Both the position numbers and the translations under genes were made by a program. From Candidatus Eiseniibacteriota bacterium (GTDB lineage Bacteria > Eisenbacteria > RBG-16-71-46 > CAVPCR01), in NCBI GenBank assembly GCA_963823555.1, contig CAWGMA010000001.1, positions 288,001 through 352,000 of the forward strand: a stretch of 64,000 nt of DNA, read 5' to 3'. Under the pieces are notes generated by a model that was not told the origin of the DNA, did no database searches, and worked only from the letters and a program-made list of their open reading frames with translations. Position 1 is the stretch's first letter, and the number at the start of each line of letters is the position of its first letter. Shown here one piece after another: positions 24,520-57,010 of this stretch.

Positions 24520-25191
24520 ATGAAGACCGATTCATGCCGCCGGTGCCGGCCCGGATCTGTGACCGGCATCCTCCTCGTCGGCACATCGCTGATCCTGGTT
24601 GGGGTGACGGGCGTCACGCTGGCCAATCCACAGGTTGTTCTCAACGAGTTGCTGGCCGACCCGGCTCGCGACTGGAACGGGGATCTCACGGTCGATGCGA
24701 CCGAGGACGAATGGGTGGAGATCGTGAACGTGGGAAACGTACCGGCGGATCTCACCGGTCTCCGCATCGGCGATCTCGATCGCGCCTGGGCCTACGGCTT
24801 CACCGGCATGCTGCCGGTGGAGGGCCGGATCGTCGTCTTCGGCAGCGATGCCAAGGGCTGGCAGCAGGCCAATGGCGTGGGCGCCTTTGGTCTTCGCTTC
24901 GCCAACACCGGCGATACCGTCGCGCTGTGGATGGTCACCGCGACCGATACGGTTCTCATCGACCAGTACACGTACGCCGATCATGAAGCCGATGACGACC
25001 GCTCCTCGGGGCGGCGGCCGGATGGCGGGGCGACGTGGGAACTGTTCGATGCTCTGAATCCGTACAGTGGGGGCGCCGTGCCCCAGGGCAACGGGTGCCC
25101 CCCGACGCCCGGTAACTCCAACCACTGCGCGACGGCGGTCGAGGATGTGACGTGGGGACGGGTCAAGGCGCGGCACCACCAGCAACCATGA
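24520..25191 (+). CDS. Secreted lamin-tail domain protein with C-terminal TWG tail
   Basis: Signal peptide; VLNELLADP...EWVEIVN; PTPG; ends AVEDVTWGRVKARHHQQP. Confidence 0.8.
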   Translation: MKTDSCRRCRPGSVTGILLVGTSLILVGVTGVTLANPQVVLNELLADPARDWNGDLTVDATEDEWVEIVNVGNVPADLTGLRIGDLDRAWAYGFTGMLPVEGRIVVFGSDAKGWQQANGVGAFGLRFANTGDTVALWMVTATDTVLIDQYTYADHEADDDRSSGRRPDGGATWELFDALNPYSGGAVPQGNGCPPTPGNSNHCATAVEDVTWGRVKARHHQQP

Positions 25192-25346
25192 CGGGTGGAG
25201 CAGGTGCGGCGGGGATCCCGGCGTTCCCCGCGTGCTGAGATCCGGACCGTCACCAGCAGCCGAGCGGCAGGCGCTGGATCGCGGGGTCTCCTCCCGACCC
25301 CCGATCCCGCCTGCCGCTGCGGCAGGTCGGCATGATCACCGGTGAG

Positions 25347-25874
25347 TCAGAAGAGTCGTCGCTCGAACTCGAGCTCGTCGCGGATGGGGACGCCGTCGAT
25401 CCCGAAGACGGGGATCTCCGGCTTGAGCCGCCGTGCCAGAGCGACCGCCTCCTCATGCACGGCGACACGAACATAACCCCTCCCGGCGTAGAACCTCATG
25501 GCCGGGAAGTTGTCGTTGGTCGTGACCAGCCAGATGCGTTGGCAGGCACGCGCCCGCGCGAGCTTCTCCGCGGCCGTCAACAGGGCGGTGCCGATGCCGC
25601 GCCGTTCGCAGAGGGAGTGCAGCAGCACGATTTCGAGCGAGAGCGGAGGTGGCGTGCAATGGAATGCGTAGAGCAGAATACCGAGCCGGACAGCGCCGTT
25701 CGCCGCTACGAGGCCGGGCAGGAGATCAGCGCGGTGGACCTGCCCGCGCGTGACCATGACGGGCGATCCCCAATGCTGAGGCAGGAACGAACGGAGCCAG
25801 GCGCGATCGCCCGGGGCGAGCCCGCGCAACGCGAAGGCCCGCGTACCATGGGCCACGTCACCGTCAGTATTCAT
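25347..25874 (-). CDS. GNAT family N-acetyltransferase
   Basis: RRGIGTALL acetyl-CoA motif; WLVTTNDNFPAMRFY; ARRLKPEIP..GIDGVPIRDELEFE. Confidence 0.9.
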   Translation of the reverse strand: MNTDGDVAHGTRAFALRGLAPGDRAWLRSFLPQHWGSPVMVTRGQVHRADLLPGLVAANGAVRLGILLYAFHCTPPPLSLEIVLLHSLCERRGIGTALLTAAEKLARARACQRIWLVTTNDNFPAMRFYAGRGYVRVAVHEEAVALARRLKPEIPVFGIDGVPIRDELEFERRLF

Positions 25875-25918
25875 CCGGGATCCAGGCGTCGACCGGGGCG
25901 CTGGGAGAAGGGGGAATT

Positions 25919-26005
25919 TGGTGCGGAAGGGGGGACTTGAACCCCCACGAGCTTGCGCCCACTAGACCCTGAACCTAGCGCGTCTACCAATTCCGCCACT
26001 TCCGC
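25919..26005 (-). tRNA. tRNA-Leu(CAG)
   Basis: Reverse complement GCGGAAGTGGCGGAATTGGTAGACGCGCTAGGTTCAGGGTCTAG...GGTTCAAGTCCCCCCTTCCGCACCA; long variable arm, encoded CCA. Confidence 0.96.
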
Positions 26006-26218
26006 ACCGACGGATCACGGAGTATAGGAGCCGCCGTTCTTCCTGTAAAGAGCGACACGCAAGCGGGCTGCCGGCCGGGGCGCCGCCGGCGAGGAACGGC
26101 GCGTGCCCCTTGCCGCCCCGCGGGGCGGGTGCTAGCTTCCACCGGGTCCGGACCGCGCCGGTCCCGGGATGGGACCGGCGGTCGGAGCGAAAGGTCCTCG
26201 CCAGGAAGCGCGCCATCC

Positions 26219-26752
26219 ATGCCCCGTACTGCAACCGCTCCCCCCGATGCCCCGCGGATCAAGCTCATTGCCACCAACCGCCGCGCGAGTCATGAGTACC
26301 ATCTCCTCGAGCGCTACGAGGCCGGTGTCGAGCTCGTCGGCACCGAGGTCAAGTCCTTGCGGCAGAAGGCGGCCAGCCTGCAAGACGCCTATGGTGCGGT
26401 CGAGGGAGAGGAGATCTTCCTCTGCAACTGCCATATCGCTCCCTACGAACAGGGGAACCGCTTCAATCATGAACCGCGCCGCAAGCGGCGCTTGCTCATG
26501 CACAAACGAGAGATCCTCCGCTTGAAGGGCAAGATCCTCGAGAAGGGTCTGACCCTGGTGCCGACCCGGATGTACTTCAAGAATGGTCGGGTGAAGCTCG
26601 AGCTGGCCATAGGACGCGGGAAGCGGCTCTATGACAAGCGTTCGGACGTGGCGAAGCGCGATGCTGACCGTGAGGTCGAACGCGCCGTCCGCGGCCGCCA
26701 GCTCGGAGCGGGTGGGCGGCGCGGCGGCCGGAGGGGAGCCAGCGATGACTGA
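26219..26752 (+). CDS. smpB: SsrA-binding protein
   Basis: NRRASHEY, EAGVELVGTEVKSLR, NHEPRRKRRLLMHKREI, GKRLYDKR. Confidence 0.97.
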   Translation: MPRTATAPPDAPRIKLIATNRRASHEYHLLERYEAGVELVGTEVKSLRQKAASLQDAYGAVEGEEIFLCNCHIAPYEQGNRFNHEPRRKRRLLMHKREILRLKGKILEKGLTLVPTRMYFKNGRVKLELAIGRGKRLYDKRSDVAKRDADREVERAVRGRQLGAGGRRGGRRGASDD

Positions 26753-28046
26753 GGAACGCCGCTGCCCTGCGGCGAGCCCCGCACGGACAATCGCCCTTCT
26801 CTTGCTCGTCCTCTCCGCGTCCGGCACGCTCACCCAGGCCGCGCCTCGCCAGCGAGCGGACGCGCCGAGCGATCGAACCATCGTGGTTCTGTTCGGCGAT
26901 GGTCGTGGCCAGCGACAGGTTGCGGTGCGAGCCCTGGATGGCGACACCGAGGCTCTGGCCGCCGGGGACCTGGCCGAGATCCTGCAGGCAACTTCCTATT
27001 GGCGTAGCGAAACCAGGAAGCTCCTGTTCCGAGTCGAGGAGCATCGCCTGACCTTGAGCGCGGACAACACGTTCGTCATCCTCGACAACCAGGTGCGCCG
27101 CCTCCCGTCGCCGCCCCGTTTCCTGGCCGGGCAGCTTTGGGTACCGATTGCGGTCTTCGACCTCCTGGCCGCTGAACACGTGGTTCCCGGGGCCTGGAAT
27201 GCGGAACGTCGCGAGCTGGTCCTGGGTAGCGGACAGGCGGCGATGGCGCCGCGCTCCGGCGATTTCCGGGCGGCGCCCCTCACCCCGGAGCCGGGATCGG
27301 AAACGTCTCCATCGGTCGCCGAACTGCGTCGCGGGTTGGTCGCCCTCGATCCCGGGCACGGCGGCGAGGACGCGGGGACACGTTCGCCAGGAGGCCTGAT
27401 CGAGAAGCACATCACGCTCGAGCTAGCGACTCGTGTGCGCCGCCACCTCGAACGCGACGGCTGGTTCAAGGTGATGCTCGTGCGTGAGCGCGACGAGGGC
27501 GTTCCAGTGCCGCGGCGGGTGGAGATCGCCAACAGCGCGGGCGCGGATCTTCTTGTCAGCTTGCACATGGACCTGGTGGTCGAGCCCTCTCCGTCCCGCT
27601 TCCGTCTGTCGGTGCGGCCGGGCAGCAGCCGCGTCGTCTACGAGGATCTCAAACCCTTCGTCGCGGGAGCCGTGGCGGCTTCAGAGGTTCTACCGACCGC
27701 CAGCTTCAGGCGATGGGAATCCGCGGGGGTCGAGCGCGGGTCCGAATCCTACGTATTCGCGCAGATGATTGCGAAAGAGCTCGAAGGTCGCCATTCCGGC
27801 GAGTCGGCGACCGTGCACCGGCGTCCCGTGTGGACGCTGGAGGGAGCCACCATGCCCGCCGTGCTCGTCGAGATCGCTCCGTCCCGCGGTGCCTCCGGGG
27901 AGAGCCTGACCCGGGGCGAAGCGCTCGAGGAGCTGGCCGCCGCCCTCGCTGGCGGTATCCGCAGCTACTGGCTCGGCACCGGGGGGGCCAAGCCGGCGCC
28001 CGCTCGTTCCCGGTCCAATGCCGAGCCCCACGGAGTGGAACGGTGA
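26745..28046 (+). CDS. N-acetylmuramoyl-L-alanine amidase (Amidase_3), divergent
   Basis: Signal peptide; DPGHGG, EK, SLH and MPAVLVE zinc/catalytic motifs. Confidence 0.8.
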   Translation: MTEERRCPAASPARTIALLLLVLSASGTLTQAAPRQRADAPSDRTIVVLFGDGRGQRQVAVRALDGDTEALAAGDLAEILQATSYWRSETRKLLFRVEEHRLTLSADNTFVILDNQVRRLPSPPRFLAGQLWVPIAVFDLLAAEHVVPGAWNAERRELVLGSGQAAMAPRSGDFRAAPLTPEPGSETSPSVAELRRGLVALDPGHGGEDAGTRSPGGLIEKHITLELATRVRRHLERDGWFKVMLVRERDEGVPVPRRVEIANSAGADLLVSLHMDLVVEPSPSRFRLSVRPGSSRVVYEDLKPFVAGAVAASEVLPTASFRRWESAGVERGSESYVFAQMIAKELEGRHSGESATVHRRPVWTLEGATMPAVLVEIAPSRGASGESLTRGEALEELAAALAGGIRSYWLGTGGAKPAPARSRSNAEPHGVER

Positions 28047-28636
28047 GGGCGGCGCGAAAGCCCGTGGCAAGACCCCAGGGCCGGAGCCTGCGCCTCCTCA
28101 TTGCGGGGATCGGATTCGTTCTCGCCCTGGGCTTCATCATCGCCGGCGTGCGCCACTTCAATATGCGCTCGCGCCCCGGCGAAGTCGCTGCGGGTCCCGG
28201 GCAGATCACGCGCTCGGTCGTCCTTCATTTTCTCGATGCAAGCGGACGGCTGGAGAGCGAAGTGCGCGAAGTGGCGGGCAAGGCGACGCTGGCTGCCCAG
28301 GTCGAGGCGGTGCTGGCCGAAGAGCTCGCCGGATCGATGAGCGATCTGGAACCCGCCATTCCGCCCGGCACCAGGCTGCTCCATGTCTTCGTCGGGCCTG
28401 GCAGCAACATCACGCTCGACCTATCACGCGAGATCGTCCGCAACCAGCCGGGAGATGTCGAGCGTGAATACGCGACGCTCGCTGCGCTCGTGCGCACGGT
28501 CCGTCTCAACTTCACCGAGATAACGACCCTGCAGATCCTGATCGAAGGTCAGCCGGAGCCCACTCTCGCCGGTCACTTTGCCATTGCGGGCCCGCTCGTC
28601 GCCGACGACTGGGTCCACGATGGTGCGGGGGACTAG
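28043..28636 (+). CDS. GerMN domain protein
   Basis: N-terminal TM; IPPGTRLLHVF...LDLS...LVRTV...LQILIEG...TLAGH; usual position between amidase and murI. Confidence 0.85.
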   Translation: MRAARKPVARPQGRSLRLLIAGIGFVLALGFIIAGVRHFNMRSRPGEVAAGPGQITRSVVLHFLDASGRLESEVREVAGKATLAAQVEAVLAEELAGSMSDLEPAIPPGTRLLHVFVGPGSNITLDLSREIVRNQPGDVEREYATLAALVRTVRLNFTEITTLQILIEGQPEPTLAGHFAIAGPLVADDWVHDGAGD

Positions 28637-29539
28637 ATGATGGACGGAGCGAAGCGCGCGGCGGAGTCCACGGCCGCGGCAGCGGGGCATCGCCCGATCG
28701 GCGTCTTCGATTCAGGAATCGGCGGCCTCACCGTGGTGCGCGAGCTGATCCATCGCTTCCCCGGCGAGAGCATCGTCTACTTCGGCGACACGGCCCGCCT
28801 GCCCTATGGCACCAAGTCGGCGGCCACGGTGCGGCGGTTCTCCGTTGAGAACACCCACTTCCTGCTCAATCAGGGGGTGAAGCTCGTTGTGGTCGCCTGC
28901 AATACGTCCTCGGCGGTCGCGCTCGACATGCTCAAGCGGCAGTTCGACGTTCCGGTCCTCGGGGTGGTCGAGCCAGGGGCGCGAGCGGCGGCGGCGGCCA
29001 CCAGAAGCGGCCGGATCGGGGTCATTGGCACCTACGCAACGATCGCGAGCGGCAGCTATGAGAAGGCGATCCGCGAGCGCATCCCGGATGCGCAGGTGAG
29101 CGCAGTCGCCTGCCCGCTGTTCGTGCCGCTGGCCGAGGAGGGATGGCTCGACCACCCGGTGACCAGGGCGGTGGCCGGCGAGTACCTCGCGCCGCTGCGT
29201 GCCGCTCATGTCGACACCCTCGTGCTCGGCTGCACTCACTACGGAGTCCTCCGCTCGGATATCGAGAGCGTCTTCGCGGGAGAGGAAGTCGTGCTCGTGG
29301 ACTCGGCGGCCGAGGTGGCGCGCGAGGTGGCGGATCACCTGAGCCCGGCTGCCGCCGGGACTTCATCGCCCGTCCGCCGCTTCTTCGTCAGTGATATCCC
29401 GGCTCGTTTCCGGGACGTGGGCGGGCGGTTCCTGGGCCAGCCCCTCGCCGACGTGGCCATCGTGGACCAGACCGATCTGCCGTGGTTCGAGCGAGAACTC
29501 GTGCCGGAGCGCCTGGGGGGGCCGCCGAACGGCTCTTAG
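28637..29539 (+). CDS. murI: Glutamate racemase
   Basis: IGVFDSGIGGLTV, PYGTKS, VACNT, LGCTHY. Confidence 0.97.
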   Translation: MMDGAKRAAESTAAAAGHRPIGVFDSGIGGLTVVRELIHRFPGESIVYFGDTARLPYGTKSAATVRRFSVENTHFLLNQGVKLVVVACNTSSAVALDMLKRQFDVPVLGVVEPGARAAAAATRSGRIGVIGTYATIASGSYEKAIRERIPDAQVSAVACPLFVPLAEEGWLDHPVTRAVAGEYLAPLRAAHVDTLVLGCTHYGVLRSDIESVFAGEEVVLVDSAAEVAREVADHLSPAAAGTSSPVRRFFVSDIPARFRDVGGRFLGQPLADVAIVDQTDLPWFERELVPERLGGPPNGS

Positions 29540-29599
29540 TCTGACGTTCGGCCGAGCTCACCCGGGGGGCTTCCTCTCCCCTGAGAGAAAGGCATTGAA

Positions 29600-30418: not shown

Positions 30419-30473
30419 CTCGAGGTCCATTCACCTTCTTGCCATTGCCCGCTGGAACCAGCCGAGGGCCGAA

Positions 30474-31346: not shown

Positions 31347-31423
<77 letters not shown>

Positions 31424-35800: not shown

Positions 35801-38800
35801 ATGTCGATGACCGATGCCAACCGCGGCGTCTTCGCCGCCGTCGAATCCGAGGTGGACTTCCCGGCCATGGAGGCCGAGATCCTCGCCTTCTGGGACGACC
35901 ACGACACCTTCAAGAAGAGCCTCGAGCTGCGCCGCGAGGGGCCGCCTTTCGTTTTCTACGACGGGCCGCCGTTCGCCACGGGGTTGCCGCACTACGGGCA
36001 TCTGCTGGCCGGCACCATCAAGGACATCGTCCCCCGCTACTGGACGATGCGCGGACACTACGTCGAGCGCCGCTTCGGCTGGGACTGCCATGGGCTCCCG
36101 GTCGAGGTCGAGATGGAACGCCAGCTCGGCATCTCCGGGAAGCGTCAGATCGAGGAATACGGCGTATCTCGCTTCAACGAGTCCTGCCGCTCGATCGTGC
36201 TGCGCTACGTCGAGGAGTGGCGAGAAGACGGTTCGCCGCATGGGTCGCTGGGTCGACTTCGACAACGACTACAAGACCATGGAGCCTGACTACATGGAGT
36301 CGATCTGGTGGGTCTTCAAGCAACTCTGGGACAAGGACCTGATCTACGCGGCTACACGGTGCAGCCCTACTGCCCACGTTGCTCGACACCGCTCTCCAAT
36401 TTCGAGGTCAACCAGGGGTACCGTGACGTCCAGGATCCATCGATGACCGTGCGCCTGCGCGCAGCCGGGGAAGGCGATGCGCGCACCTATTTCCTGGTGT
36501 GGACGACGACCCCGTGGACGCTGCCCGCCAACCTCGGGCTCGCCGTCGGTCCCGACATCGACTACGTCCTGGTCCAGGATGGGCAGGATCGCTACTGGCT
36601 GGCCAAGGACCGGGTGGCCGCCGTGTTCCGGGAGGAGGAGCCCGAGGTGCTCGCCACCCAGAAGGGGGCGAGCCTGGTCGGCCGGCGCTACGAGCCGCCA
36701 TTCGACTACTATCTTCACTACGCCGATCGCGCCTTCCGGGTCGTGCCGGCCGATTTCGTCTCGACCGAGGAGGGGACCGGGATCGTGCACATGGCGCCCG
36801 GCTTCGGCGAGGACGACTTCACGATCGGGAGTCGCGAGGGTTGGCCGGTGGCCATGCCGCTGGACGCCGAGGCTCGCTTCACCGAGGAGGTTCCCGACTA
36901 CCAGGGCTGTTCGTCAAGGATGCCGATCCGCTCATCATCAGACGTCTCCGCGAGGAAGGGAAGCTCGTCCACCAGACGACGCTGCAGCACGCCTACCCCT
37001 TCTGCTACCGCTGCGACTCACCGCTCATCTACCGGGCCATCGATACGTGGTTCGTGAACATCGAACCCGTGAAGCCGGCGATGCTCAGGGCCAATCAGCT
37101 CATCAACTGGGTGCCGGACCATCTGCGGGACGGCCGCTTCGGCAACTGGCTCGAGGGTGCGCGCGCCTGGAACCTGGGCCGCAACCGTTACTGGGGTACA
37201 CCGATTCCGGTTTGGGTGTCCGAGGACGGCGAGGAGCTCGTGTGCGTCGGCAGCCGGGAGGAGCTGGCGCGCCTCTCCGGAGTCGCATCCCGCCGACCTT
37301 CACCGCCACTTCGTCGATGAGATCACCATCCCCTCGGCTCAGGGCCGAGGGGCCCTGCGGCGCGTGCCGCAGGTGCTCGACTGCTGGTTCGAGTCGGGCT
37401 CCATGCCCTATGCCCAGAACCACTACCCATTCGCGAACAAGGAGGCATTCGAGTCCAGTTTCCCGGCCGACTTCATCGCCGAGGGACTCGATCAGACCCG
37501 CGGCTGGTTCTACACGCTGATCGTCCTCTCGGCTGCGCTCTTCGATCAGCCCGCTTTCAAGAACGTCGTCGTCAACGGCCTCGTCCTCGCCGAGGACGGC
37601 AAGAAGATGTCCAAGCGGCTCAAGAACTACCCCGAGCCGGAGGAGATCCTCAACCGCTACGGCGCCGATGCGCTGCGGGCCTATCTCATCGATTCTCCGG
37701 TGGTGCGCGCCGAGGATCTGCGCTTCTCCGAAGCCGGCGTCCGCGAGGTCATGCGTCAGGTCATCCTGCCCCTGTGGAACGCCTACTCCTTCTTCGTCAC
37801 CTACGCCAACATCGACGGTTGGACTCCGGATCGGCCGCCGCTCGAGCCCTCGGGTCGGCTCGACCGCTGGATTCTCTCGGTGCTCCATGCCCTCATCGAA
37901 GAGGTCAACACGCAGATGGATCGCTACAACCTGTACCGGGTGATTCCGGCGCTCGAGCGATTCATCGATGACCTCACCAGGTGGTACATCCGGCTGTCCC
38001 GACCGCGCTTCTGGAAGGAGGGCGAGGATGCCGACAAGGAGGCGGCCTACCAGACCCTGTACACGGTGCTCACCACGTTCTCGCGGATGCTGGCTCCCTT
38101 CCTGCCCTTCGTCTGCGAGGCGATGTATCGAAACCTCGTGGTCCGCGCCGGAGCGCCAGGTCCCGAGTCGGTGCATCTGACGGACTACCCGCAGTCCGAT
38201 CCCGATCGCCGCGATCTAGTGCTCGAGCGGGAGATGGCCCTGGCGCGCACCATCGTCGGTCTCGGGCGCGCGCTTCGCGAGCGTCACAAGGTGAAGACCC
38301 GACAGCCGCTTCGCGAGGTCGCTGTGGTGGCGCGCACCGCCGAGGAGCAGGCGCTCATCCGCGACCTCGAGGACATTGTCCTCGAGGAGCTCAACGTGAA
38401 GGAGCTGCGCTTCACCGAGCGCGAGGAAGACCTGGTCACCGTCAGCGCCAAGGCCAACTTCCGCGTCTGCGGGCCACGCTTCGGTCGCGAGATGCGGCGT
38501 GCCTCCGAGGTCATCCAGGGCTTCGATCTCCTCACCATCCGCCGCCTCGAGGCGGGAGGTGAGATCGAGGTCTGCGGCCAGCCGATCACCATCGCCGACA
38601 TCCTGATCGAGCGGCGGGAGCGCGAGGGTCACGCCACCGAGACCGAGGCCGGCGTGACGGTGAGCCTGGACATCGCGGTCACGCCCGAGCTCCGGGCGGA
38701 AGGCAATGCGCGCGAGGTGAAGAACCGCATCCAGGCCATGCGCAAGGAGGCCGGGTTTGCGGTCGACGACCGGATTCGAGTGATGATCGACGCGCCCGCC

Positions 38801-38968
38801 GACTTTGCCGCTGCGCTCGATACGCACCGGGACTACCTCAAGGCGGAGACGCTCGCCGTGGGGCTCGATCTGGTGGGAACTCCGGATTTCACCGCCGAGA
38901 TCGAGCGCTCCTGGGAAATCGACGGGCAGCGGGTGGCGATCGGGATCCGCCGCGCGGAGCGCCCGTAG
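35801..38968 (+). CDS. ileS: Isoleucyl-tRNA synthetase, type 2, broken by four apparent 1-nt indels (~36221, ~36348, ~36906, ~37285)
   Basis: [61 protein letters not shown] and KMSKR spread over five frame segments. Confidence 0.93.
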
Positions 38969-44550: not shown

Positions 44551-44681
44551 TTTGACTGGCGTCAGAGATTCCGCCGTGTCCGAAAGGGGGTGCTCGACGG
44601 CGCACGGTATGCCCGATTCGGGCCAAGCTCCTGAAAGCTTTTCGCTCTAGGCAACTCAGGATTCTCCTTAGGAGGTGTGTA

Positions 44682-45305
44682 ATGTCGCGTTTCCTCGTCA
44701 GTGCCCTCGGAGCGGCGATTCTCCTGGGCGCCCTCTCGACGCTGGTTCTTGCCGGGCAGCCAGACCCCAATCAGAGCACGTGGGGCAACCTGGTCGGATG
44801 CAGCCCGAAGAACACCACGGCGCCCGTGAATTCCCGATACAGCTTCGTGGGCACCATTCGTGACGGCGCCGGGGCGCCGATCGCGAATTTCCCGGCGAGC
44901 CAACTCGAGCTCGATTTCGGCGATTGCAACGAACCGAGCACGCGGCCGTCGGATCAGATCCCGGCCGACGGTGACAGCAACATCAATGGCCAGGTCACCT
45001 GGAACGTGAACCTCAATTTCGGCGGCAAGGATCCGTGCGCGGTCCGCGTCCTCGTGCAGAACGTGGTCTTCAAGACCCTGGCTGATCATCAGGGATTGCC
45101 GAATGCCCAGATCGACGGTGGCGTGCGCTCAACCGATGAGACGGGCGACGGCCTGGTCGCTCTTGCGGACCTCGGCCAGTTCCAGCAGGAGTTCGTGAAC
45201 ACCGGCACGCGTCGCGACTATGTCGGCGACCTGGGCCCGAACTTCGATGGTCTCACGGCTCTTGCCGACCTCGGTACGTTCCAGCAGCACTTCACCGCTC
45301 CGTAA
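44682..45305 (+). CDS. Secreted protein: Ig-like domain plus C-terminal dockerin-like duplicated Ca-binding motif
   Basis: Signal peptide; DETGDGLVALADLGQFQQEF and GDLGPNFDGLTALADLGTFQQHF; AGGAGG RBS. Confidence 0.75.
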   Translation: MSRFLVSALGAAILLGALSTLVLAGQPDPNQSTWGNLVGCSPKNTTAPVNSRYSFVGTIRDGAGAPIANFPASQLELDFGDCNEPSTRPSDQIPADGDSNINGQVTWNVNLNFGGKDPCAVRVLVQNVVFKTLADHQGLPNAQIDGGVRSTDETGDGLVALADLGQFQQEFVNTGTRRDYVGDLGPNFDGLTALADLGTFQQHFTAP

Positions 45306-45608
45306 GCGGTGGGGGCCAGTCCCGGGGTCTTGATACCCCCGGCTGGCAGGTAAATTGCAACGGTGTTTGACGGTGTAGGTACTGGGGATCCGTCCCCTGG
45401 CGGGTCCCCAGTACCGAAAAGAGGGTGAGGGGTGGCGGAAAGGCTCTCTCTCACCTGAGAATGTCCGAATCGGCCGCGGACGGGAGGGCGAGCGGGGCCA
45501 AAGCGAACGTCAGCAACTGACGGGGGAAATCCTCCAATCAGCTTTGCTTCGGAACCCGACATCTCGACCAGCCAGGAACCTGCAGCTCTTGATCAGGAGG
45601 TAAACAGA

Positions 45609-46232
45609 ATGCGTTACGCGCCCGTAGCGATGGCCTTGTTGGCGCTCTGTCTCACGACGACCGCCTTTGCCGGCCAGAACCCGAACGTGACCCTGCCGAT
45701 GCACGGCAAGACCTCGACCTTCGAGGCTTGCGACGGCTATCTGCCGGTCGATTGCCTCAGCAATCGCCCGACGGTGAATCTTCCCGCTGGTCCCATCACG
45801 GTTTTCCTCTTCGTGATGAACTACGACTGCGTGGCTGGTGTGCAGACCGCATTCCAGCCGGCTGCTACGTGGACCTTCGGGTTCGGCCTCTGGGATTGCC
45901 AGCCGGGCCAGCTGAGCGCCGTGACCCCGGCCGCGCCCTTCGGGCCGACCAGCGGTACGATCACGACGGCCTTCAACTTCCTCAACGGTCCGGCTCTCGG
46001 AGTCGTCGGCCGCATGGTTTTCGTGAACACGGTTAGCGGCTGCGTCGAGCAGGTCCAGTCCAGCTATCCGTTCGAGAACCACGTTCTCGACTGCCAGCAG
46101 GGCATCGACCAGGTGGTCGAGGGTGCTCGCATGGGCAAGATCTGCGTCACCGAGGGTGGCGTGGATGCCTGTGAGCCGCTCGTGGCGGTGGAGCCGGCGA
46201 CCTGGGGCGGCATCAAGGCGCAGTACAACTAG
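45609..46232 (+). CDS. Secreted Cys-rich beta protein with TWG tail (paralog of 56378-57010)
   Basis: Signal peptide; WTFGFGLWDCQPGQLSAVTP; ends AVEPATWGGIKAQYN; AGGAGG RBS. Confidence 0.85.
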   Translation: MRYAPVAMALLALCLTTTAFAGQNPNVTLPMHGKTSTFEACDGYLPVDCLSNRPTVNLPAGPITVFLFVMNYDCVAGVQTAFQPAATWTFGFGLWDCQPGQLSAVTPAAPFGPTSGTITTAFNFLNGPALGVVGRMVFVNTVSGCVEQVQSSYPFENHVLDCQQGIDQVVEGARMGKICVTEGGVDACEPLVAVEPATWGGIKAQYN

Positions 46233-46283
46233 CTCTCCGAGAGCCGCGGGTAGCCTTCCCGGCTCGGCCGGATGATCAACGAT

Positions 46284-46325
46284 CGAGGGCGGCTTCTTTC
46301 GGGAAGCCGCCCTCGTCGTTCTTTG
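46284..46325 (+). terminator. Intrinsic terminator
   Basis: 13-bp perfect stem CGAGGGCGGCTTC/GAAGCCGCCCTCG followed by TCGTTCTTTG. Confidence 0.75.
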
Positions 46326-46425
46326 CCTTGGAGATGGGACACCCGGCGTGGGGTAGTACGCCTTGCCCTCTCGGAGCCCGAGCGCTAGAATCCCCCGTCA
46401 TTCTCCCTCGCCGGCTGCATGGCTC

Positions 46426-47315
46426 ATGGTGATCAATCAACGGACTTCCATTCTCCTCCTGGGTCTGTGACCCTTTCGCTGGTGCTTTGCGCCCCGACCG
46501 CGGCTCCGGGCGGCGGTTCCGAATCGCCCCTGACGTCGGCTACGGCCGCGGGCGACTCGGCTCGTGCCGGCATCGCTCCCGGCGGCACCCGCATCGGGAC
46601 GCATGAGCTCCCGCCGGAGGCGCCCGATCCGCGTGCCTACCGGGACACGACGCTCACCTACGAAGAGCAATCGAAGCTCGATGAGAGACTCCGGCACGAG
46701 CGCAAGCTGGCAGCGATCGATTCGCTGGATCTCAACCACCATGTCACGCTGGCGCTGCATGCCGCTCCGGCGAGCGAGCGCCGCACCCCATCCGAGATTG
46801 CAGCGCTTGCCCGCGACTGTGAGCATCTCGTCACCGCCGTTGCACCCGGGGACTGGGACATCTTCCTGATCGCGAGGGGGTTCGATCTCCTGAACGGGGT
46901 TTCGTTCACTCTGGCCTGGCCCGAGGACTGGATCGTCCGCGGCTTCAGCCTCAACCCCGAACTGAAGGTGCCCTTCGCCATGGGCGATGTCGGCGCCGGA
47001 TCGGCGCGTCCCTACATGGTCGTCTTCAATTGTGTCGCCCACCCGGAGCGGGAGCCGATGGTGCCGAAGGGTGTCCTGTACACGACCGGCGACCGGGTCG
47101 TCATCGGTCATCTCGAGGTCACGGCAATGAGTCCGGGGTCGCTCACGATCGAGGACAGCGCGAATCCGGACTACGGTCCGCCTGAAGTGTCGAACTGCTG
47201 GAACACGACTCAGGACATACCCGTCACCGCCCGCGGCCGCATCGATGTCGGCTCGGGCCCGGGACTACGGCCCTGCGACGCCGTCCGCCCGCCGGCCGCC
47301 GAAGGGAAACCCTAG
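46426..47315 (+). CDS. Secreted protein distantly related to the 45609/56378 family, without TWG tail; probable 1-nt deletion at ~46467 in the signal peptide
   Basis: VTLALHA...DIFLIARGFDLLNGVSFTLAWPEDW...GRIDVG..PCD parallels the paralogs; MVINQRTSILLLGL joins VTLSLVLCAPTAA if one base is added. Confidence 0.7.
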
Positions 47316-47341
47316 TCGAGGCTCTGCCGCCGGAAGTGCCC

Positions 47342-49108
47342 ATGAAGTCAAGAATGTCCTTTCCAGTCATGGCTGCGTGCCTGTTCGCTCTGTGTCTCGG
47401 GGCCGCCACGATCGAGGCGTGGGGATCCGGGCCGGCTTCGGGAGCCGCTCCGAGCGGGGCGCCGACCGATGTCGTCGCCCGCATCGGTGACGTCGCCATC
47501 GATCGAGCGACCTTCGAGGCCGAGTTCGCCCGCAGCCAGCGCGACACGACCAAGCCCAGGAGCGATCTCGAGGCCCGACAGGAGTTCATGGAGTCGCTCG
47601 TGAACCGCTACCTCCTGGTCGCGGCGGCGCGCGAGGCCGGCTACTTCGAGCCGGATTCGACCCGCGACTACATGATCAAGGGCTTCGAGGATTCGCAGCT
47701 CATCACCATGGTCCGCGACCGGGAGGTGCGCTCGAAGATCGAGGTCACCCCCGAGGAGGTCGAGGCCTACCACGCCAAGTCGGCCGAGCTCTTCGACATG
47801 AGCCAGATCATCGTCGCCACTCGCGAGGAAGCGGAGGCGGTGATGAAGCGGTTCGATGCCGGAGAGGACTTCGCAACCGTCGCTCGCGAGGTGTCGCTCG
47901 ACATCAAATCGTCAGACAAGGGGGGGCAGGTCCCGCCATTCGCCTGGGGCATGACGAGCCTGTCTTTCCTCGCTGCACTCGACGAGATGAAGCCCGGTGA
48001 GATCCGCGGCCCGATCGAGAGCGAGGCTGGTTACCACATCATCCAGCTCCACGGAATGCAACGCAATCCGAACTACGAGCCGCTCAACGATGGACAGCGG
48101 CCCTATGTCGAGTATCGTTGCCGCCTGTTCAAGGAGATGGAGCTCACCAACGAGTTCTACGCTCAGCTCAAGGAGCGTTATCATTTCTCGCCCAACTGGC
48201 CTGCTGTCAATGCGCTGGCCCGGATCTTCCGCGATGCTGTGGCCGCCGCGGTGGAGAACAATCCGCACGCGAGCCGGGAGGATCAGGAGGAAATCGCCAA
48301 GCGCAGTGTCGTCCTCGAGGATTCCCTGCTGCGGCAGCCGATCGCAACCTGGGATTCCGGCTACTTCCTTGTCTTCGAGGACTGGCAGTTCGTGAGCCAG
48401 CTCCCCGGCCTGGCCATCGTCGACCGGCGCAACCCGCACTTCATCGTCGGTGATGCAGCCGCCGACTTCTATCGCGCGGCTCAGGCCATGGAGGCCCGGG
48501 CCAAGGGCTACGACAAGGAGCCGGAACTTCGGCGGGGGGTCGAGCGGAAGCGGGAGGAGATCGCAGTCTCCCAGTTCTACACAACCGAGATACTGGGGAA
48601 GCCGCAGTTCACTGCTGCCGAAGAGCGGGAGTACTACGAGCAGCATCCCGATCAGTTCATCATCGAATCGCAGGTCAAGCTGGCCTGCCTGCAGTACCAG
48701 GCCGATCCGGCGGCGGCAGCGGCCATGGAGGACGCTTTACGGGGGTCGGCGAGCCCAGATTCCCTGCTGAAGGAGCACATGGCACGGGGACTCATCCGGA
48801 CGCAGACCCCGGAAGGCAAGTGGTTCAACGACCAGCAGCACCCCATCATCTTCGGCAAGGCCTGGCCGATGAAGACCGGTGAGATCGGTCGCGTGATCGA
48901 TGAAGAGGGATACTGGACTGTGTTCGTCGTGCTCGACCACCAGGAAGGCCGAATGGCTGCCTTCGATGAGGTCAAGAAGACGGTGCAGACATCGCTCCGC
49001 AACATCAAGGCCGATGAGATTCTCAAGAACATGCTCGCAGATCTGCGTGTCAAGTACCCGGTGTGGGTCGATCCGGCATATGTCCGGAACACGGGAGGGT
49101 CGGAATAG
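47342..49108 (+). CDS. Exported parvulin-type peptidyl-prolyl isomerase (SurA/PpiD-like)
   Basis: Signal peptide; VVARIGD..I, GEDFATVAREVSLD..S.DKGG, GPIESEAGYHII. Confidence 0.88.
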   Translation: MKSRMSFPVMAACLFALCLGAATIEAWGSGPASGAAPSGAPTDVVARIGDVAIDRATFEAEFARSQRDTTKPRSDLEARQEFMESLVNRYLLVAAAREAGYFEPDSTRDYMIKGFEDSQLITMVRDREVRSKIEVTPEEVEAYHAKSAELFDMSQIIVATREEAEAVMKRFDAGEDFATVAREVSLDIKSSDKGGQVPPFAWGMTSLSFLAALDEMKPGEIRGPIESEAGYHIIQLHGMQRNPNYEPLNDGQRPYVEYRCRLFKEMELTNEFYAQLKERYHFSPNWPAVNALARIFRDAVAAAVENNPHASREDQEEIAKRSVVLEDSLLRQPIATWDSGYFLVFEDWQFVSQLPGLAIVDRRNPHFIVGDAAADFYRAAQAMEARAKGYDKEPELRRGVERKREEIAVSQFYTTEILGKPQFTAAEEREYYEQHPDQFIIESQVKLACLQYQADPAAAAAMEDALRGSASPDSLLKEHMARGLIRTQTPEGKWFNDQQHPIIFGKAWPMKTGEIGRVIDEEGYWTVFVVLDHQEGRMAAFDEVKKTVQTSLRNIKADEILKNMLADLRVKYPVWVDPAYVRNTGGSE

Positions 49109-50880: not shown

Positions 50881-50975
50881 GGCTGCCAGGTGTGCCGGGA
50901 TGGGACAGGAAGTCCGGATCGAGACGGTCGCTGGCTCGGGAGCCGCGGATCCCCGCGGCTCCCACATCTCTTGAC

Positions 50976-51293: not shown

Positions 51294-54200
51294 ATGAGCA
51301 TGCGGTTCCACACCTCGTGCCTCCCAGCGCTTGCCGCAGCCCTCATCCTGGCGGGGATGTCGCCCCCCGGAGCGGTGGCTTCTTCCTGGTCCCCTCGAGT
51401 GAGCGGAGATCCCGCGTTCGCCCGGATCACCGTGGAGTTCGAACCCGGCGACGTTGGTTTCAGCGCTCAGAGCGAAGGCCTGGAGATCGCCGAGGTCCTG
51501 ACCGCCAACGACCGCTGGCACTTCCCGGGGGCTCCGGACCTGCCCATCCTGAGGCTTGTCGTCCAGGTCGATGACGATTTCCGCGTCGAGGACGTGTTGA
51601 TCAGGAGCGAGGACGAGGTCTCGATGGGCAGGCATCCTCTGGCGCCCGCCGCGGCGGACGGGGGCGGAGAGCGTGTGGCCGATCCTGCGTTCTACGGGAG
51701 CAATGACTTCATTCCCCCGCGCGCGGCCGAGGTCGCCGGAGAGGCCTGGTCGAGAGGACGCCGCCTGGCCTACGTCACGATCTATCCCCTGCGCACGAAC
51801 CCGGTGAGCGGCGAGGTCATGCTATCGACCCGGCTCACCATCGAGCTCACCGGTCGCAGAGACGCCGCCGTTCACGGCCGGCGCCCGCGCCCGGTGCCAT
51901 GGGAAGCCAAGGTCGATGAAGCCCTCGGGCGGATCGCCGTCGACCTCCGCAGCTCCCCGGGCGCGAAGTCGGCGGCGCCGATGACAGGCGAAGTGGAAGG
52001 TTTCTGGAGCCCGACCTACCGGCCCACTCTCGATGGCAGCCCCGTCGAGTACGTGATCATCACCTCGGCCGCTCTCGAGCCGGAGTTCCAGGTGCTCGCC
52101 GACTGGAAGACCAAGAAGGGCGTGCAGGCCGTCGTGCGTACCCTCGAGTGGATCACGACGTCGTACCCGGGCGTCGACCGCGCGGAAAAGCTCAGGAACT
52201 TCGTCACCGATGCCTACGAGAACTGGGGCACGCTGTGGGTGCTTCTCGGTGGAGACTCCGATCAGGTGCCCTTGCGGTATGCGAGTCATGCCCTGAACAC
52301 ACCGCCCGAACCGATTCCCACGGATCTCTACTTCTCCTGTCTCGACGGCAACTGGAACGCCGATGGTGATGCCGTCTTCGGCGAAGGCATTCCCCCGGGC
52401 TATCCCGCCGGCGGGGATTCGGTCGACCTCGCGCCCGAGGTCTTCGTCGGTCGCGCCCCGGTCTCGACTCCCGCCCAGGTCGGGGTATTCGTCAGCAAGG
52501 TCATCGACTACGAGCAGGCCATCTTCGCTTCCAATCGCTATCCCAGCTCCGCGCTGCTCCTGGGTGAGCGGCTGTCCCCGTCATCGGACGGCGGGGCCTA
52601 CTGCGAGGATGTTCGCCAGCGCCTTCCCGCCGGCATGCGCGTCGTGCGGATGTACGAGGAGTATCCAAGCTATCCCGGCGCCTTGCCCGAGCTGCGCGTC
52701 ACCGTGATCGACTCGCTGAATGCCGGGTTCGGCCTGGTGCATCACGTCGGTCACGGCTACCGAAACACCATGTCGGTCGGCGACGGCACCCTCTCCAACG
52801 CCGATATCGACAACCTGACCAATGGCGGCCGGCAATCCGTGGTGTATGCCATCAATTGCTCGTCGGCCGCTTTCGACTACGCGGCCATCGGGGAGCGGTT
52901 CCTCAGGAATCTGAACGGCGGCGGCGTGGCCTACATCGGCAGCTCACGCATCGCCTCCTCGGGAGACTCTCGACCGTTCCAGAATGAATTCTACGAGGTC
53001 GTGTTCCAGGACAGCGTCACCTCGGTAGGGAAGGCGGTGGGATACTCCAAGCTGCCGTTCATTCCCGGCTCGCAGTCAGAGACATCCTACCGCTGGGTTC
53101 AGTTCTCCCTCACCTTGCTCGGCGATCCCGAGATGCCGATCTGGAGACGGGGGCCGACTCCGATCACCGTGACGAGCTCGCTCACGCATCCCCTCGGTAC
53201 GGCGAATTACACGGTCACGGCCACGGCCGGCGGCTCACCGCTCCCCGGAGCCCGTGCCACCTTGTGGAAGCAGGGAGACGCGTTTGCCACGGGGTTGACG
53301 CAGGGCAACGGTGTCGCCACCTTGCCGTTTCTCCCATCGTCCACCGGGAGCTTCCATGTGACCGTGGCGCGGCCGGACTATGCTCCGTCCCAGAAGGACG
53401 CGAACGCGGTCGGCGCCAGCAGCGCTTTCCTCTACATCACACAGGTCACGATCAACGACGACGCCATCCCGCCGAGCTCCGGCAACGGCAATGGACAGCC
53501 CGATGCCGGGGAGCGGGTGGAGGTCACGGTGCGTCTCCGCAACGACGGCAGCACGACGGCGACCAACGTGAACGGCATCCTGTCCGTTCTATCGGGAGGC
53601 GCTCACGCTACCATCTTCCAGGCCAACGCGAGCTACGGGACCGTGGCCGTGGGTGGGCAGGCGGTGGGGACCTACGTCATCGACCTCGACCGCGCGGCTC
53701 CCGACGCCTTCCAGCCGACTTTCCAGCTGGCGATCACCACCGGCCAAGGGGCCTTCAGCGACAGATTCGTACTCCCCGTGCGCGGCCATGACATCGAACA
53801 CTACGCCCATGTGCTCTCGGACCCGGCGCCCGGGGGCAACGGCAACGGAGTGCCCGAGCCCGGCGAGGCGCTCAGCTACCGGGTGACGGCGCGCAACAAC
53901 GGGACCGGGCGTGCCGACCAGGTTTCGTTCACCCTACGGGTCCTGAACCGCTTGACGTTGCTTCCCGATCCACAGGTCACGATCACGGACGCCAATTCGA
54001 GCTTCGGCAATCTCCTGTCCGGTGCCACCTTCCAGGGCGATGCTGTCGCCTTCACGCTCGCCGGTGGTGCCGTGGTCAACGATCTCCTGCTCGAGATCTC
54101 CTGGCGCGACGCGCGCGGCGCGCTGCATCTGGATCTCTGCGATCTGGTGCCCCCGGATCCGGTCGAGGAGATCCGGGCGGAGGGCCGAGTCTCGAGCATC

Positions 54201-56090
54201 ACGCTCGAGTGGACGGCGCCCGATTCGAGCGATGTCGCCGGCTATGATATCTACCGATCAACGAATGCCCAGGGCGGCTTCTCACGCATCAATGCTTTCA
54301 CCGCTCTCGGATCCGCCGTGTACGAGGACTCGAATCTGCCCTCCCTGACGCGATACTACTACTACGTGGTGGCGCGGGATCGCTCCTTCAACGAGAGCAT
54401 CGCTTCGCCGATCCTCTCGGCGACGACCACGCCGCCGATCGCCAGCGGCTGGCCGATCGAGATGGGACAGCAGACAGCAGCAGGTGTGGTCATCGATGAT
54501 CTCGATGGAGATGGTGACCTCGAGGTCGTGACCGGGGCCGATGCGATCTATGCCTGGCACAATGACGGCACCGAGGTGCGCGACGGCGACTCGAACCCGC
54601 TCACTTCCGGCGTCTTCGCCACCGACGGCCAGAACGGAGCCTTCGGATTCCATGCCACCCCGGCCATCGGGGACCTCACCGGCGACGGCGACATGGAGAT
54701 CGTGGGCCTGGCCTGGCGCGAGGCCCGGGTCTATGTGTGGAACATCGACGGCTCGCTCGAGCCCGGCTGGCCGCAGACGATAGGCGGCGACTTCAACTGG
54801 GCATCGCCCGTCATCGAGGATCTCGACCTCGACGGCGACATGGAGATCGTCGCCCCATCGGGCATGACCGGCCGCATCTTCGCCTGGCACCATGATGGTA
54901 CCGAGGTGGCCGACGGCGATTCCAATCCCGCGACACAGGGCATTCTCTTCGTGACCGGCAGTTCCTTCCTCTACTCTTCGCCGGCGGTGGGCAACATCGA
55001 CGCAGACGCCTATCCGGAGATCGTGTTCGGCACGCAGAGTTCAGGAGGATTCGTCTATGCGATTTCGGGCATCACGGGCGCCGTCAAGCCCGGCTGGCCC
55101 CGTGAGACGCACAGCCAGGTGACCGCATCGCCCGCGCTTGCCGACTTCGACAATAACGGGTCCCTTGAGGTCGTGATCTGCTCCGAGTCCGACTCGGTCT
55201 ACGTGCTCCGGGGCAACGGGACCGACTATCCGGGCTGGCCCCGCCCCGCCGTCGTCAACTCCGACTTCGGACACACGAGCTCGCCGGTGGTCGCTGACAT
55301 CGACGCGGACGGGTTCCTCGATGTCGTCTTCGCCGCGAACGATGGCCACATGCATGTGTGGAAGCGCGATGGCTTGGTGGTGTCCGGATGGGCCAATGTT
55401 CTCTTCGCCCAGGACGCCCTCAATGCCGATGTGACGCAGTCGACGCCGACCGTGGCCGATCTGGATTCGGACGGTCGGCTCGAGATCGTGGTCGGCGCCG
55501 AGAACGGGCTGATCTACGGCTGGAACCACGACGGGACCTCGTTGGCCGGGTTCCCCATCAGCATCGGCGGCGAGCAGCGAAGCGCGGTCACCCTATGGGA
55601 TGTCGACCAGGACAACTTCGTCGAACTTCTGGCCACCTCCAACGACCGCAATTTCTATGTCTGGGATCTCGCCGGCGAGTTGCGCGCCGATAGGATCCCG
55701 TGGCCGTTCTTCCGTCATGACTCGCGGAACACCGGCCGCTTCGATGCGAAGTTCACGTCGATCGGCATCGCCGACGCCGAGCCGGTCCCGGCGGTGCTCC
55801 AGACCCCGGTCCTCCTCCCGGCCTTCCCGAACCCGTTCAATCCGGCCACCACCATCCGTTTCGTCGTACCGGGAGAGCGGGCCGGTTCGCGGCGGGTCGA
55901 GCTCCGGATCTACGACGTCGAGGGACGGCTGGTCCGGAACCTGGCCAGTGGCCCCTTCGAGACCGGGGAGCATGCGGTCGTCTGGGATGGGCGGACGGGA
56001 GCCGGAGGCCGGGCTGCCAGCGGGGCCTATTTCATGAAGCTGGAAGTGGATGGGGAGGTTCGCACCGGGAAGCTCACCCTTCTCCAGTAG
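51294..56090 (+). CDS. Gingipain-family (C25) cysteine peptidase with propeptide, Ig/FN3 domains, FG-GAP repeats and FlgD-Ig CTD
   Basis: YVIIT, WKTKKG, VLLGGD, TDLYF, VGRAPV, HVGHG and AINC dyad, LLGDPEM; repeated DxDGDG..EIV/GWP; PNPFNPAT...WDG...SGAYF. Confidence 0.92.
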   Translation: MSMRFHTSCLPALAAALILAGMSPPGAVASSWSPRVSGDPAFARITVEFEPGDVGFSAQSEGLEIAEVLTANDRWHFPGAPDLPILRLVVQVDDDFRVEDVLIRSEDEVSMGRHPLAPAAADGGGERVADPAFYGSNDFIPPRAAEVAGEAWSRGRRLAYVTIYPLRTNPVSGEVMLSTRLTIELTGRRDAAVHGRRPRPVPWEAKVDEALGRIAVDLRSSPGAKSAAPMTGEVEGFWSPTYRPTLDGSPVEYVIITSAALEPEFQVLADWKTKKGVQAVVRTLEWITTSYPGVDRAEKLRNFVTDAYENWGTLWVLLGGDSDQVPLRYASHALNTPPEPIPTDLYFSCLDGNWNADGDAVFGEGIPPGYPAGGDSVDLAPEVFVGRAPVSTPAQVGVFVSKVIDYEQAIFASNRYPSSALLLGERLSPSSDGGAYCEDVRQRLPAGMRVVRMYEEYPSYPGALPELRVTVIDSLNAGFGLVHHVGHGYRNTMSVGDGTLSNADIDNLTNGGRQSVVYAINCSSAAFDYAAIGERFLRNLNGGGVAYIGSSRIASSGDSRPFQNEFYEVVFQDSVTSVGKAVGYSKLPFIPGSQSETSYRWVQFSLTLLGDPEMPIWRRGPTPITVTSSLTHPLGTANYTVTATAGGSPLPGARATLWKQGDAFATGLTQGNGVATLPFLPSSTGSFHVTVARPDYAPSQKDANAVGASSAFLYITQVTINDDAIPPSSGNGNGQPDAGERVEVTVRLRNDGSTTATNVNGILSVLSGGAHATIFQANASYGTVAVGGQAVGTYVIDLDRAAPDAFQPTFQLAITTGQGAFSDRFVLPVRGHDIEHYAHVLSDPAPGGNGNGVPEPGEALSYRVTARNNGTGRADQVSFTLRVLNRLTLLPDPQVTITDANSSFGNLLSGATFQGDAVAFTLAGGAVVNDLLLEISWRDARGALHLDLCDLVPPDPVEEIRAEGRVSSITLEWTAPDSSDVAGYDIYRSTNAQGGFSRINAFTALGSAVYEDSNLPSLTRYYYYVVARDRSFNESIASPILSATTTPPIASGWPIEMGQQTAAGVVIDDLDGDGDLEVVTGADAIYAWHNDGTEVRDGDSNPLTSGVFATDGQNGAFGFHATPAIGDLTGDGDMEIVGLAWREARVYVWNIDGSLEPGWPQTIGGDFNWASPVIEDLDLDGDMEIVAPSGMTGRIFAWHHDGTEVADGDSNPATQGILFVTGSSFLYSSPAVGNIDADAYPEIVFGTQSSGGFVYAISGITGAVKPGWPRETHSQVTASPALADFDNNGSLEVVICSESDSVYVLRGNGTDYPGWPRPAVVNSDFGHTSSPVVADIDADGFLDVVFAANDGHMHVWKRDGLVVSGWANVLFAQDALNADVTQSTPTVADLDSDGRLEIVVGAENGLIYGWNHDGTSLAGFPISIGGEQRSAVTLWDVDQDNFVELLATSNDRNFYVWDLAGELRADRIPWPFFRHDSRNTGRFDAKFTSIGIADAEPVPAVLQTPVLLPAFPNPFNPATTIRFVVPGERAGSRRVELRIYDVEGRLVRNLASGPFETGEHAVVWDGRTGAGGRAASGAYFMKLEVDGEVRTGKLTLLQ

Positions 56091-56377
56091 GTCCGGACGA
56101 GCTTGCCCCCCGGGGGCCTTCCCAGCCCCCCAGGAGGCGGGCCTCCCTCCGGTCCTGGGCGGGGGTCCCAGACTCCGGGGGAATGGGGCAAGTGCAATCC
56201 CTGAAGCTCCTTACGCGGTTCCGGGCAAATGTCCCTTGACCCCCCGTCCGTGGCCCGTGTAGCCTCCGCCGCGACCATCCCAGAGGGGGGTGTCGCACCA
56301 GGGGACGTGAAGGACTCTGTAACTTGGCGCGGGGTCCAGTTTCAGTTTGTCTCCAGAGCCATGGAGGGTAAGGCGTG

Positions 56378-57010
56378 ATGCGCTTCGCTTTTGCAGCGGT
56401 GGTCCTGGGTGTCCTGCTCGGTATGAGCGGGATGGCCCTTGCTGAGAACAATGACTGCGTGACGGTTGTGCTCCATGCCGCTTCCGGCATCGACACCGAC
56501 TGCCAGACCGATGTCGATTGCACCGCAGTGCAGCCGACGACTCGGATCGACGGCCCGGTCGGTCTCTACACCGTCGTCATGTACCTCCGGAACTACGACG
56601 AAGTCAACGGCGTGCAGGTCGCATTCGATTGGCCAGGGACCTGGTCCTTCGGCTTCGGCCTCTGGAACTGCCAGACGGGCCAGCTCTCCGCTGTCACCCC
56701 GACCGCACCCGGCCCGCTGTCGGGCAGCATCACCACCGCGTTCAACTTCATCACCGGTGGTGCGCTGGCTCCGGTCGGCGTCATGGTCTTCAACTCGCTC
56801 GGCGTGGACGGCTGCCTGTCCATCATCGAGTCGGAGTATCCGTTCGGGAATCACGTGATCAACGGCAACGTGACTCCGCCGGAGACCGCGATTCGCGACG
56901 AGAACGAGGGCAAGATCTGCGTTGCCGCTGATGGTTTGAACGCTTGCGAGTGCGTACCTGAGGCTGTTGAGCCGGCCACCTGGGGGCAGATCAAGGCCAC
57001 GTACCGCTAG
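56378..57010 (+). CDS. Secreted Cys-rich beta protein with TWG tail (paralog of 45609-46232)
   Basis: Signal peptide; WSFGFGLWNCQTGQLSAVTP, YPFGNHV, GKICV; ends AVEPATWGQIKATYR. Confidence 0.85.
   Translation: MRFAFAAVVLGVLLGMSGMALAENNDCVTVVLHAASGIDTDCQTDVDCTAVQPTTRIDGPVGLYTVVMYLRNYDEVNGVQVAFDWPGTWSFGFGLWNCQTGQLSAVTPTAPGPLSGSITTAFNFITGGALAPVGVMVFNSLGVDGCLSIIESEYPFGNHVINGNVTPPETAIRDENEGKICVAADGLNACECVPEAVEPATWGQIKATYR

Follow-up and report, generated by a model that had tools for sequence, protein, structure and literature searches.

A 64,000-nucleotide stretch of a Candidatus Eiseniibacteriota genome (the window; contig CAWGMA010000001.1, positions 288,001 to 352,000) encodes three proteins that end in a short tail with a Thr-Trp-Gly core (the TWG tail), and we analyzed this tail together with the proteins that may receive it. 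A prior reading made from the letters alone (the sequence-only reading) had reported the three tails on carriers from two unrelated families. All three are present on the plus strand, with the conserved Thr codons at 25150, 46200, and 56978 and the stop codon 10-13 residues downstream, and the carriers fall into two families as described: one is a lamin-tail-domain protein (24520..25191, +; Pfam PF00932, E=5e-9), and the other two are paralogs from an unannotated family with 10 copies in the genome, namely a protein of 207 amino acids (aa) at 45609..46232 (+) and one of 211 aa at 56375..57010 (+), which are 47% identical to each other. Signal-peptide-like starts can be read directly from the sequence of all three carriers, and the tails occupy 25135..25191 and 46185..46232 (both +, stop codon included) and 56963..57010 (+). 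Contigs from public RNA libraries, which span 44568-46269 and not 46278-47750, bear on the letters of the DNA and say nothing on transcription or gene ranking; those over 45364-46269 and 45345-46238 are identical to the window and run through the stop of the 45609 gene, so the second tail and its stop are not assembly errors.

The genome to which the window belongs (G000; 4.62 Mb, 67% GC, 4 contigs) holds many more copies of the tail, with the consensus [AP]-V-[ED]-x-x-[TS]-W-G-x-[IV]-K-x-x-[YF] in a profile built from C-terminal seeds. A loose pattern gives 169 matches in six-frame open reading frames (ORFs), 114 of them at most 20 residues from the stop. The profile gives 108 matches of at least 12 bits among 49,444 six-frame ORFs, and 107 of these lie at most 25 residues from the stop; the single internal match belongs to a protein with a second, terminal copy, and reversed ORFs give no match to the profile. 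As the 105 seeds of the profile were picked as C-terminal, the informative part of this result is the near-absence of internal matches. The tail is real and non-random. The 107 carriers form 59 passenger clusters, consistent with the portable tag that had been suggested, and a signal peptide is found in 77 of the 86 carriers of at least 150 aa, vs 687/2599 other called genes and 171/240 proteins with a FlgD-type C-terminal domain (CTD), all counted with our own heuristic and not a trained predictor. The tail has no transmembrane helix, as had been claimed: the mean helix hydrophobicity is about 0.02, and 83/107 proteins stop 3-5 residues after the conserved Lys. It is modelled as a helix with a mean hydrophobic moment of about 0.40, in line with the proposed amphipathic helix. 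One element did not survive: the Cys said to stand closely ahead of each tail is found in 60/107 carriers genome-wide and is not part of the motif. Carriers are smaller than CTD proteins (median 220 vs 596 aa, with imperfect start calls). A strict size limit for tail cargo was considered and rejected, as tails are found on open frames of 800-1700 aa in other genomes.

The sequence-only reading had placed the tail beside the FlgD-type CTD, the signal of type IX secretion (by the T9SS), as a separate signal, and the two are mutually exclusive in this genome. With a genome-derived profile we found 261 ORFs with a FlgD-type CTD; none of them bears the tail, and none of the 107 tail proteins matches the CTD profile. 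Thus, if the tail proteins are located at the surface, the tail would have to bring them there. Thirty-nine carriers have a CTD-bearing paralog, and in 25 of these the homology reaches up to both junctions; after one spurious case was dropped, 24 paralog pairs swap the tail for the CTD at the same junction, 13 of them from one beta-helix-type cluster. Tail genes also cluster near CTD genes (44/92, vs a random mean of 20 and a maximum of 33 in 500 draws). At the junction, 79/107 tails show [GASP][VI][ED], with Pro at the putative +1 position in 45/107. The junction, as x-[AGS]-[VI], resembles the site of PorU, which is PT/GI with small residues preferred at +1 (PMC11969387). This latter pattern occurs in 59/211 CTD linkers of the genome vs 24.6 after shuffling, and a loose form of it precedes the tail in 21/25 single-copy carriers. 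The genome has SprA genes, 11 PorV-family matches, and 21 C25 matches, and no match to GldM. The tail as a marker of a motor-less T9SS was rejected: GldM is absent in 30/30 non-Bacteroidia genomes (29 of them tail-positive), yet present in 5/5 tail-positive Bacteroidia tested. A protein of about 1150 aa (1151 aa) with a weak SprA match and no Pfam match ends a porU-porV gene run (L021:8666-12187; G000:C1:709731-713186), and DUF5683 proteins also lie beside porU-porV.

Some representatives of the tail are lipoproteins with 2-4 tandem tails (P0002, P0006, and P0057). In G000 this lipoprotein family has five members: three genes with a tail after each domain (five such domains in total), one gene without a tail, B (C2:173417), and, next to B, A (C2:174327), which has a degenerate tail at its end. 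The domains of the three tailed genes are of the B type, as are those of the tandem representatives, and B is also fused to tails in two Latescibacterota-type loci (L187 and L193). A and B, whose lipoprotein status is read from their Cys-led signal sequences, are mostly adjacent genes across the FCB (Fibrobacteres-Chlorobi-Bacteroidetes) genomes examined. Upstream of them, G000 has a 663-aa gene whose product has a signal peptide and weakly matches barrel families, and the A-B-barrel locus (C2:173417-176930) is outside the window. B has no significant match in Pfam, NCBIfam, or PDB (28 B rows). A is homologous to B (HH probability 99.3), is modelled with an NTF2-like fold, and ends in a tail-like helix with an invariant Trp in 20/20 rows, modelled at a pLDDT (predicted local distance difference test) of about 96. 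Right after the Cys, B carries N-P-F-x-P, which resembles the start of a FlgD-type CTD, and A carries F-x-x-R-x-P; these motifs are candidate barrel-docking segments.

B and the window tail were co-folded, using residues 14-196 of the G000 B with a 28-row alignment and the last 30 residues of the 56375 product with 22 rows. The interface score ipSAE (interaction prediction score from aligned errors) is 0.90 (0.91, 0.90, and 0.86 in separate runs), and the best of three controls reaches 0.02; the partner pLDDT is 70-72, and the runs share at least 97% of contacts. The mark used for such scores is reached by 116/157 solved complexes and 2/215 mismatched pairs and is roughly applicable with our own alignments; the co-fold remains a prediction, and the mark can also be reached by close relatives of a true partner. 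Since neither B nor the tail has a sequence match in PDB, recall of a similar complex is not evident. In the predicted interface, only tail residues of the 30-mer touch B (residues 16-27 and 29-30, all within the third window tail): the first tail residues pair with a B strand, the tail Trp and Gly meet Phe70 and Asp192 of B, and the helix lies against B residues 89-97, including the conserved acidic residue 90. Phe70, the acidic residue 90, and Asp192 are kept in 18/18 tail-less B rows. A retains the equivalent Glu and Asp of this pocket, and we infer that A's own helix fills the pocket that is open in B, making A a self-plugged twin of B. On these predictions and on strong circumstantial evidence, the tail very probably binds B.

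The predicted B complex bears on two further explanations of the tail. A generic amphipathic membrane-binding helix without a specific receptor would agree with the hydrophobic moment given above, and a false match to the tail profile came from P0117, which resembles a phage tape-measure protein and has similar repeats; with Trp, Gly, and Lys near-invariant across phyla (partly through pattern selection), with the tail tracking specific genes, and with a specific co-fold, we consider such a helix highly improbable. We attach equally little credence to the proposal that a PorV-like shuttle or a C25 enzyme, like those encoded in the window, reads the tail directly. The PorV-family and C25 matches in the genome and the PorU-like junction speak for it, but the tail lacks the beta-strand motifs B, D, and E of known CTDs, and a different protein tracks and co-folds with it. 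Of the sequence-only proposal, therefore, the portable, helical, non-transmembrane tag that excludes the CTD and matches no Pfam or NCBIfam model stands, and handling by the PorV-like or C25 proteins of this window found no support.

The tail is widespread beyond this genome. Its profile matches in 119/121 genomes of the window's phylum, and 975 protein representatives match it, with the tail at most 14 residues from the end in 143 of the 150 listed. The ESM Atlas clusters nearest to the tail carry the label Ca. Eiseniibacteriota, each through one member with a record. Pfam matches were found on 17/87 representatives and NCBIfam matches on 8/82, always on the passenger. Neither the window carriers nor these two sets show any Pfam or NCBIfam model on the tail, in agreement with its earlier description as an uncharacterised signal, and PF18962, PF13860, and TIGR04183 give no match on any of them. 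The passengers include beta-helix, PKD, CHRD, and choice-of-anchor D and P domains and a homolog of a PEP-CTERM protein. A DNA-pattern scan, which samples breadth only and yields no counts, found at least 120 stretches, and the matches among the 80 listed include Ignavibacteria, Kapabacteria, Chlorobiaceae, Rhodothermaceae, Calditrichota, KSB1, Marinimicrobia, Zixibacteria, Latescibacterota, Krumholzibacteriia, Handelsmanbacteria, and Poribacteria; 9/80 are not at the end of an ORF of at least 50 aa, and a further one, in a membrane protein (L089), looks like chance. In 39 genomes from these records, one tail match was found in 22 (one of them by chance), two in 2, 9-41 in 12, and none in 3. 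As judged from these matches, the tail spans the FCB group, often with one copy per genome.

The single-copy carrier is mostly a signal-peptide protein of 130-140 aa, modelled as an FN3-like sandwich with a C-terminal helix. It has 3679 homologs, the best 120 of which are named 'hypothetical' or bear unrelated automatic labels, and its FN3 domain also matches many large Bacteroidia proteins. In Zixibacteria the single carrier is another small domain. One family of the window's phylum has, in this place, the ortholog of the lamin-tail protein of the window; the ortholog is the only tail carrier detected in some relatives (the sole tail match in G022, G031, and G094) and was also found in G042 and G055, with 42% identity between the window protein and the G055 copy. 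By these comparisons, the passenger changes while the tail is retained. Two variants of the arrangement were also observed: in Poribacteria (L201, G149) the FN3 domain and a tail variant stand at the end of large proteins with open frames of 700-1170 aa, and in one Latescibacterota genome (L220:15611-16147) a small lipoprotein of another kind has a tail-like helix at its end.

Such single-copy lineages raise the question of whether the tail serves export at all. It could instead hold passengers non-covalently on B, on the periplasmic side of the outer membrane, with the barrel, A, B, and the FN3 carrier forming an ancestral complex not for export whose docking site was reused in some phyla. 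In many lineages each genome has a single carrier and a single B (exactly one true match in 21 genomes), this carrier varies by lineage (FN3, another small domain, or lamin-tail) as a structural subunit or plug might, and tandem tails suggest avidity or cross-linking. Against this, the window's genome has 107 carriers vs one tail-less B gene, and the passengers belong to T9SS-CTD cargo families, including choice-of-anchor domains; we therefore regard a mere tether as distinctly unlikely.

The barrel gene gives the module its third protein. Its family is unannotated, encodes 600-700 aa, and lies directly upstream of A-B in G000, G055, G125, G131, and others; no NCBIfam match was found in 7/7 rows, and no sequence match was found in PDB. 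The barrel is present in 7/7 module-positive and 0/7 module-negative genomes tested, including a sister pair of one positive and one negative genome (G285 and G291). The tail and the lipoproteins also go together. Of 121 Bacteroidia, 7 show the tail and 8 the lipoproteins, and the eighth genome has an FN3-tail protein just below the cut-off, which gives 8/8. Among 61 Marinisomatota, SprA is present in 61, the lipoproteins in 33, and the tail in 32, all within the 33; the tail was found in 0/28 lipoprotein-negative genomes. A co-inherited protease was not found in our searches. The tag and a four-part co-inherited module composed of the tag, A, B, and the barrel are thus well supported.

These parts suggest the following route for a tagged protein. 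The passenger would cross the inner membrane by Sec and fold, and B would capture its tail in the periplasm in a pilotin-like manner; A and B would then dock on the barrel, and the cargo would pass through the barrel to the cell surface. We give an even chance to the reading that a pilotin-like receptor (B), its self-plugged twin (A), and a dedicated predicted barrel export tagged proteins alongside the type IX system. The stronger form of this reading, to which we incline somewhat less, is an ancient, SprA-independent secretion system of the FCB group, in which a barrel of 600-700 aa gated by two NTF2-like lipoproteins would export folded cargo by a 15-residue tag, with about 100 substrates per genome in Eisenbacteria and their neighbours.

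Several observations weigh against export by this module. The barrel fold is read from weak Pfam barrel matches, the residues at the termini, and a rough count of 20-24 strands (14 in a wrong-frame control). The barrel was tested in 14 genomes only, and two of the positives (G304 and G129) then entered the second profile; the first profile had missed one positive (G160), and two negatives (G294 and G140) were tested by that weaker profile only. Losses of the module amount to few independent events, with 2 in Marinisomatota, counted on a FastTree SprA tree of 38/61 genomes with an imperfect root, and at least 1 in Bacteroidia. In the window's phylum, B was matched in 111/121 genomes, and 9 tail-positive genomes have no B match; when 5 of these 9 were retested with an A profile, 2 proved to have A beside a B-like gene and 3 gave no match. 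One genome with B-like genes (G023) and one with the lipoproteins (G310) have no detected tail, and the B match in Poribacteria is weak (E=7.5e-4). In the co-fold, the conservation of the whole interface does not exceed that of the other B positions (P=0.23). Finally, a SprA match was found in every module-positive genome tested (that of Poribacteria under the cut-off, and the eight positive Bacteroidia not among them), and A-B stand at the end of a sprA-cargo-porV-porV run in three Marinisomatota loci, three module-negative loci having the run without A-B, and follow porV-porV in one Latescibacterota genome.

The last two observations would fit an accessory branch of the T9SS, in which cargo without a CTD is caught by B through its tail and passed on to SprA and PorV, with possible cleavage at the junction and anchoring of the cargo by PorU, and with the barrel as a scaffold or shuttle and not a channel. 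The resemblance of the junction to the PorU site, its enrichment in the CTD linkers, its occurrence ahead of the tail in most single-copy carriers, and the matches of the FN3 domain to large Bacteroidia proteins also point in this direction. However, the module was lost as a unit with SprA retained in 28/61 Marinisomatota, and the module has its own barrel. The frequent Pro at the putative +1 position, the fact that the junction residues border the predicted B interface, and the presence of tails on lipoproteins and in tandem also argue against such a branch. An FCB group without SprA, in which the linkage could be examined, was not found, as SprA is present in 61/61 and 41/41 genomes. We consider the accessory branch unlikely, though a serious contender, and retain export through the module's own barrel as the favoured reading.

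We compared the tail and its module with known systems. The LPXTG, PEP-CTERM, and GlyGly-CTERM signals are short portable C-terminal tags on choice-of-anchor-type passengers, with a transmembrane helix and a dedicated protease. The TWG tail is likewise a short portable C-terminal tag on choice-of-anchor-type passengers, but it lacks the transmembrane helix, and no co-inherited protease was found for it. Pilotins (PulS/OutS and AspS) are small lipoproteins that capture a short C-terminal segment of the secretin; this segment can be transferred, turns helical once bound, and occurs together with its pilotin (PMC3542185). As in the pilotin and S-domain pairs (PulD/OutD and GspD), a lipoprotein is predicted here to bind the client's short C-terminal helix; unlike those pairs, the system has up to about 100 unrelated passengers instead of one secretin client, and its receptor, for which an NTF2-like fold is modelled, is accompanied by a self-plugged twin and a barrel. 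No homology to PulS-OutS or AspS was detected, as the 28 B rows give no Pfam, NCBIfam, or PDB pilotin match, and the clients are not secretins.

Known CTDs of the T9SS, even short ones of 43-55 residues, are predicted to bind PorV via the beta-strand motifs B, D, and E (PMC11969387). The tail shares with these CTDs (type A, TIGR04183/PF18962; FlgD-type, PF13860; and the short CTDs of Prevotella intermedia) a C-terminal position, predicted-Sec cargo, passengers, the position of the junction, and a similar junction sequence. It differs in being a helix of about 15 residues, whereas the CTDs are beta-sheets of at least 43 residues, in having another predicted partner, in lacking the three motifs, and in being lost without loss of SprA. 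In type XI secretion (DUF560/Slam), an outer-membrane protein takes lipoproteins as well as soluble proteins through the outer membrane (PMC8406197). A dedicated outer-membrane protein is proposed here too; unlike type XI, which is described in Proteobacteria, the barrel here comes with two lipoproteins and a short-peptide cargo signal. The G000 barrel has no Pfam match to DUF560, only weak matches to generic barrel families, and no NCBIfam match was found in 7 rows. The system would therefore work like a pilotin/S-domain pair and stand in for a T9SS CTD, and it fails the sequence-level tests for a pilotin, a CTD, type XI secretion, and a transmembrane sorting signal.

Other genes of the window lie near the carriers or touch the same families. 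A lamin-tail protein at 18137-19894 (+) has a weak FlgD-type C-terminal match, that is, the passenger domain of the 24520 protein with the other signal; two unannotated ORFs (19708-22139) with no Pfam match follow its gene. The 45609 product may be cohesin-like, with an ESM Atlas score of 0.80 that is below the reliable range of the Atlas, and we take this as a lead only. Directly upstream of it, a signal-peptide protein (44682-45305, +) has a C-terminal weak match to a GC-type dockerin (NF041540, E=0.012, under the cut-off), and this candidate dockerin protein could be held by a TWG-tagged cohesin; a similar arrangement may be present in another locus (L038). The neighbouring 46419 protein was considered as a tail-less member of the 45609 family and rejected, as BLASTP detects no similarity. 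At 35814-38968 (+), an isoleucyl-tRNA synthetase is apparently split across several frames, probably by assembly indels, and some short tail ORFs of the genome may therefore be fragments. At 10257-12167 (+), the N-terminus of a PorV/PorQ-like barrel is joined to a coiled-coil/TPR region in one protein; the 2225-aa protein ahead of it ends in a FlgD-type segment.

Our literature search found no description of the tag or the module, although subscription papers and supplements outside its reach could hold one. If the proposed export route is true, a large section of the bacterial tree, most of it uncultured, would have a new means to cross the outer membrane or to decorate it. As the tag is no longer than about 15 residues, and both a candidate receptor and its pocket residues can be named, the proposal is directly testable. 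With it, four unannotated conserved families would also gain a role, and about 3% of the genes of this genome a destination.

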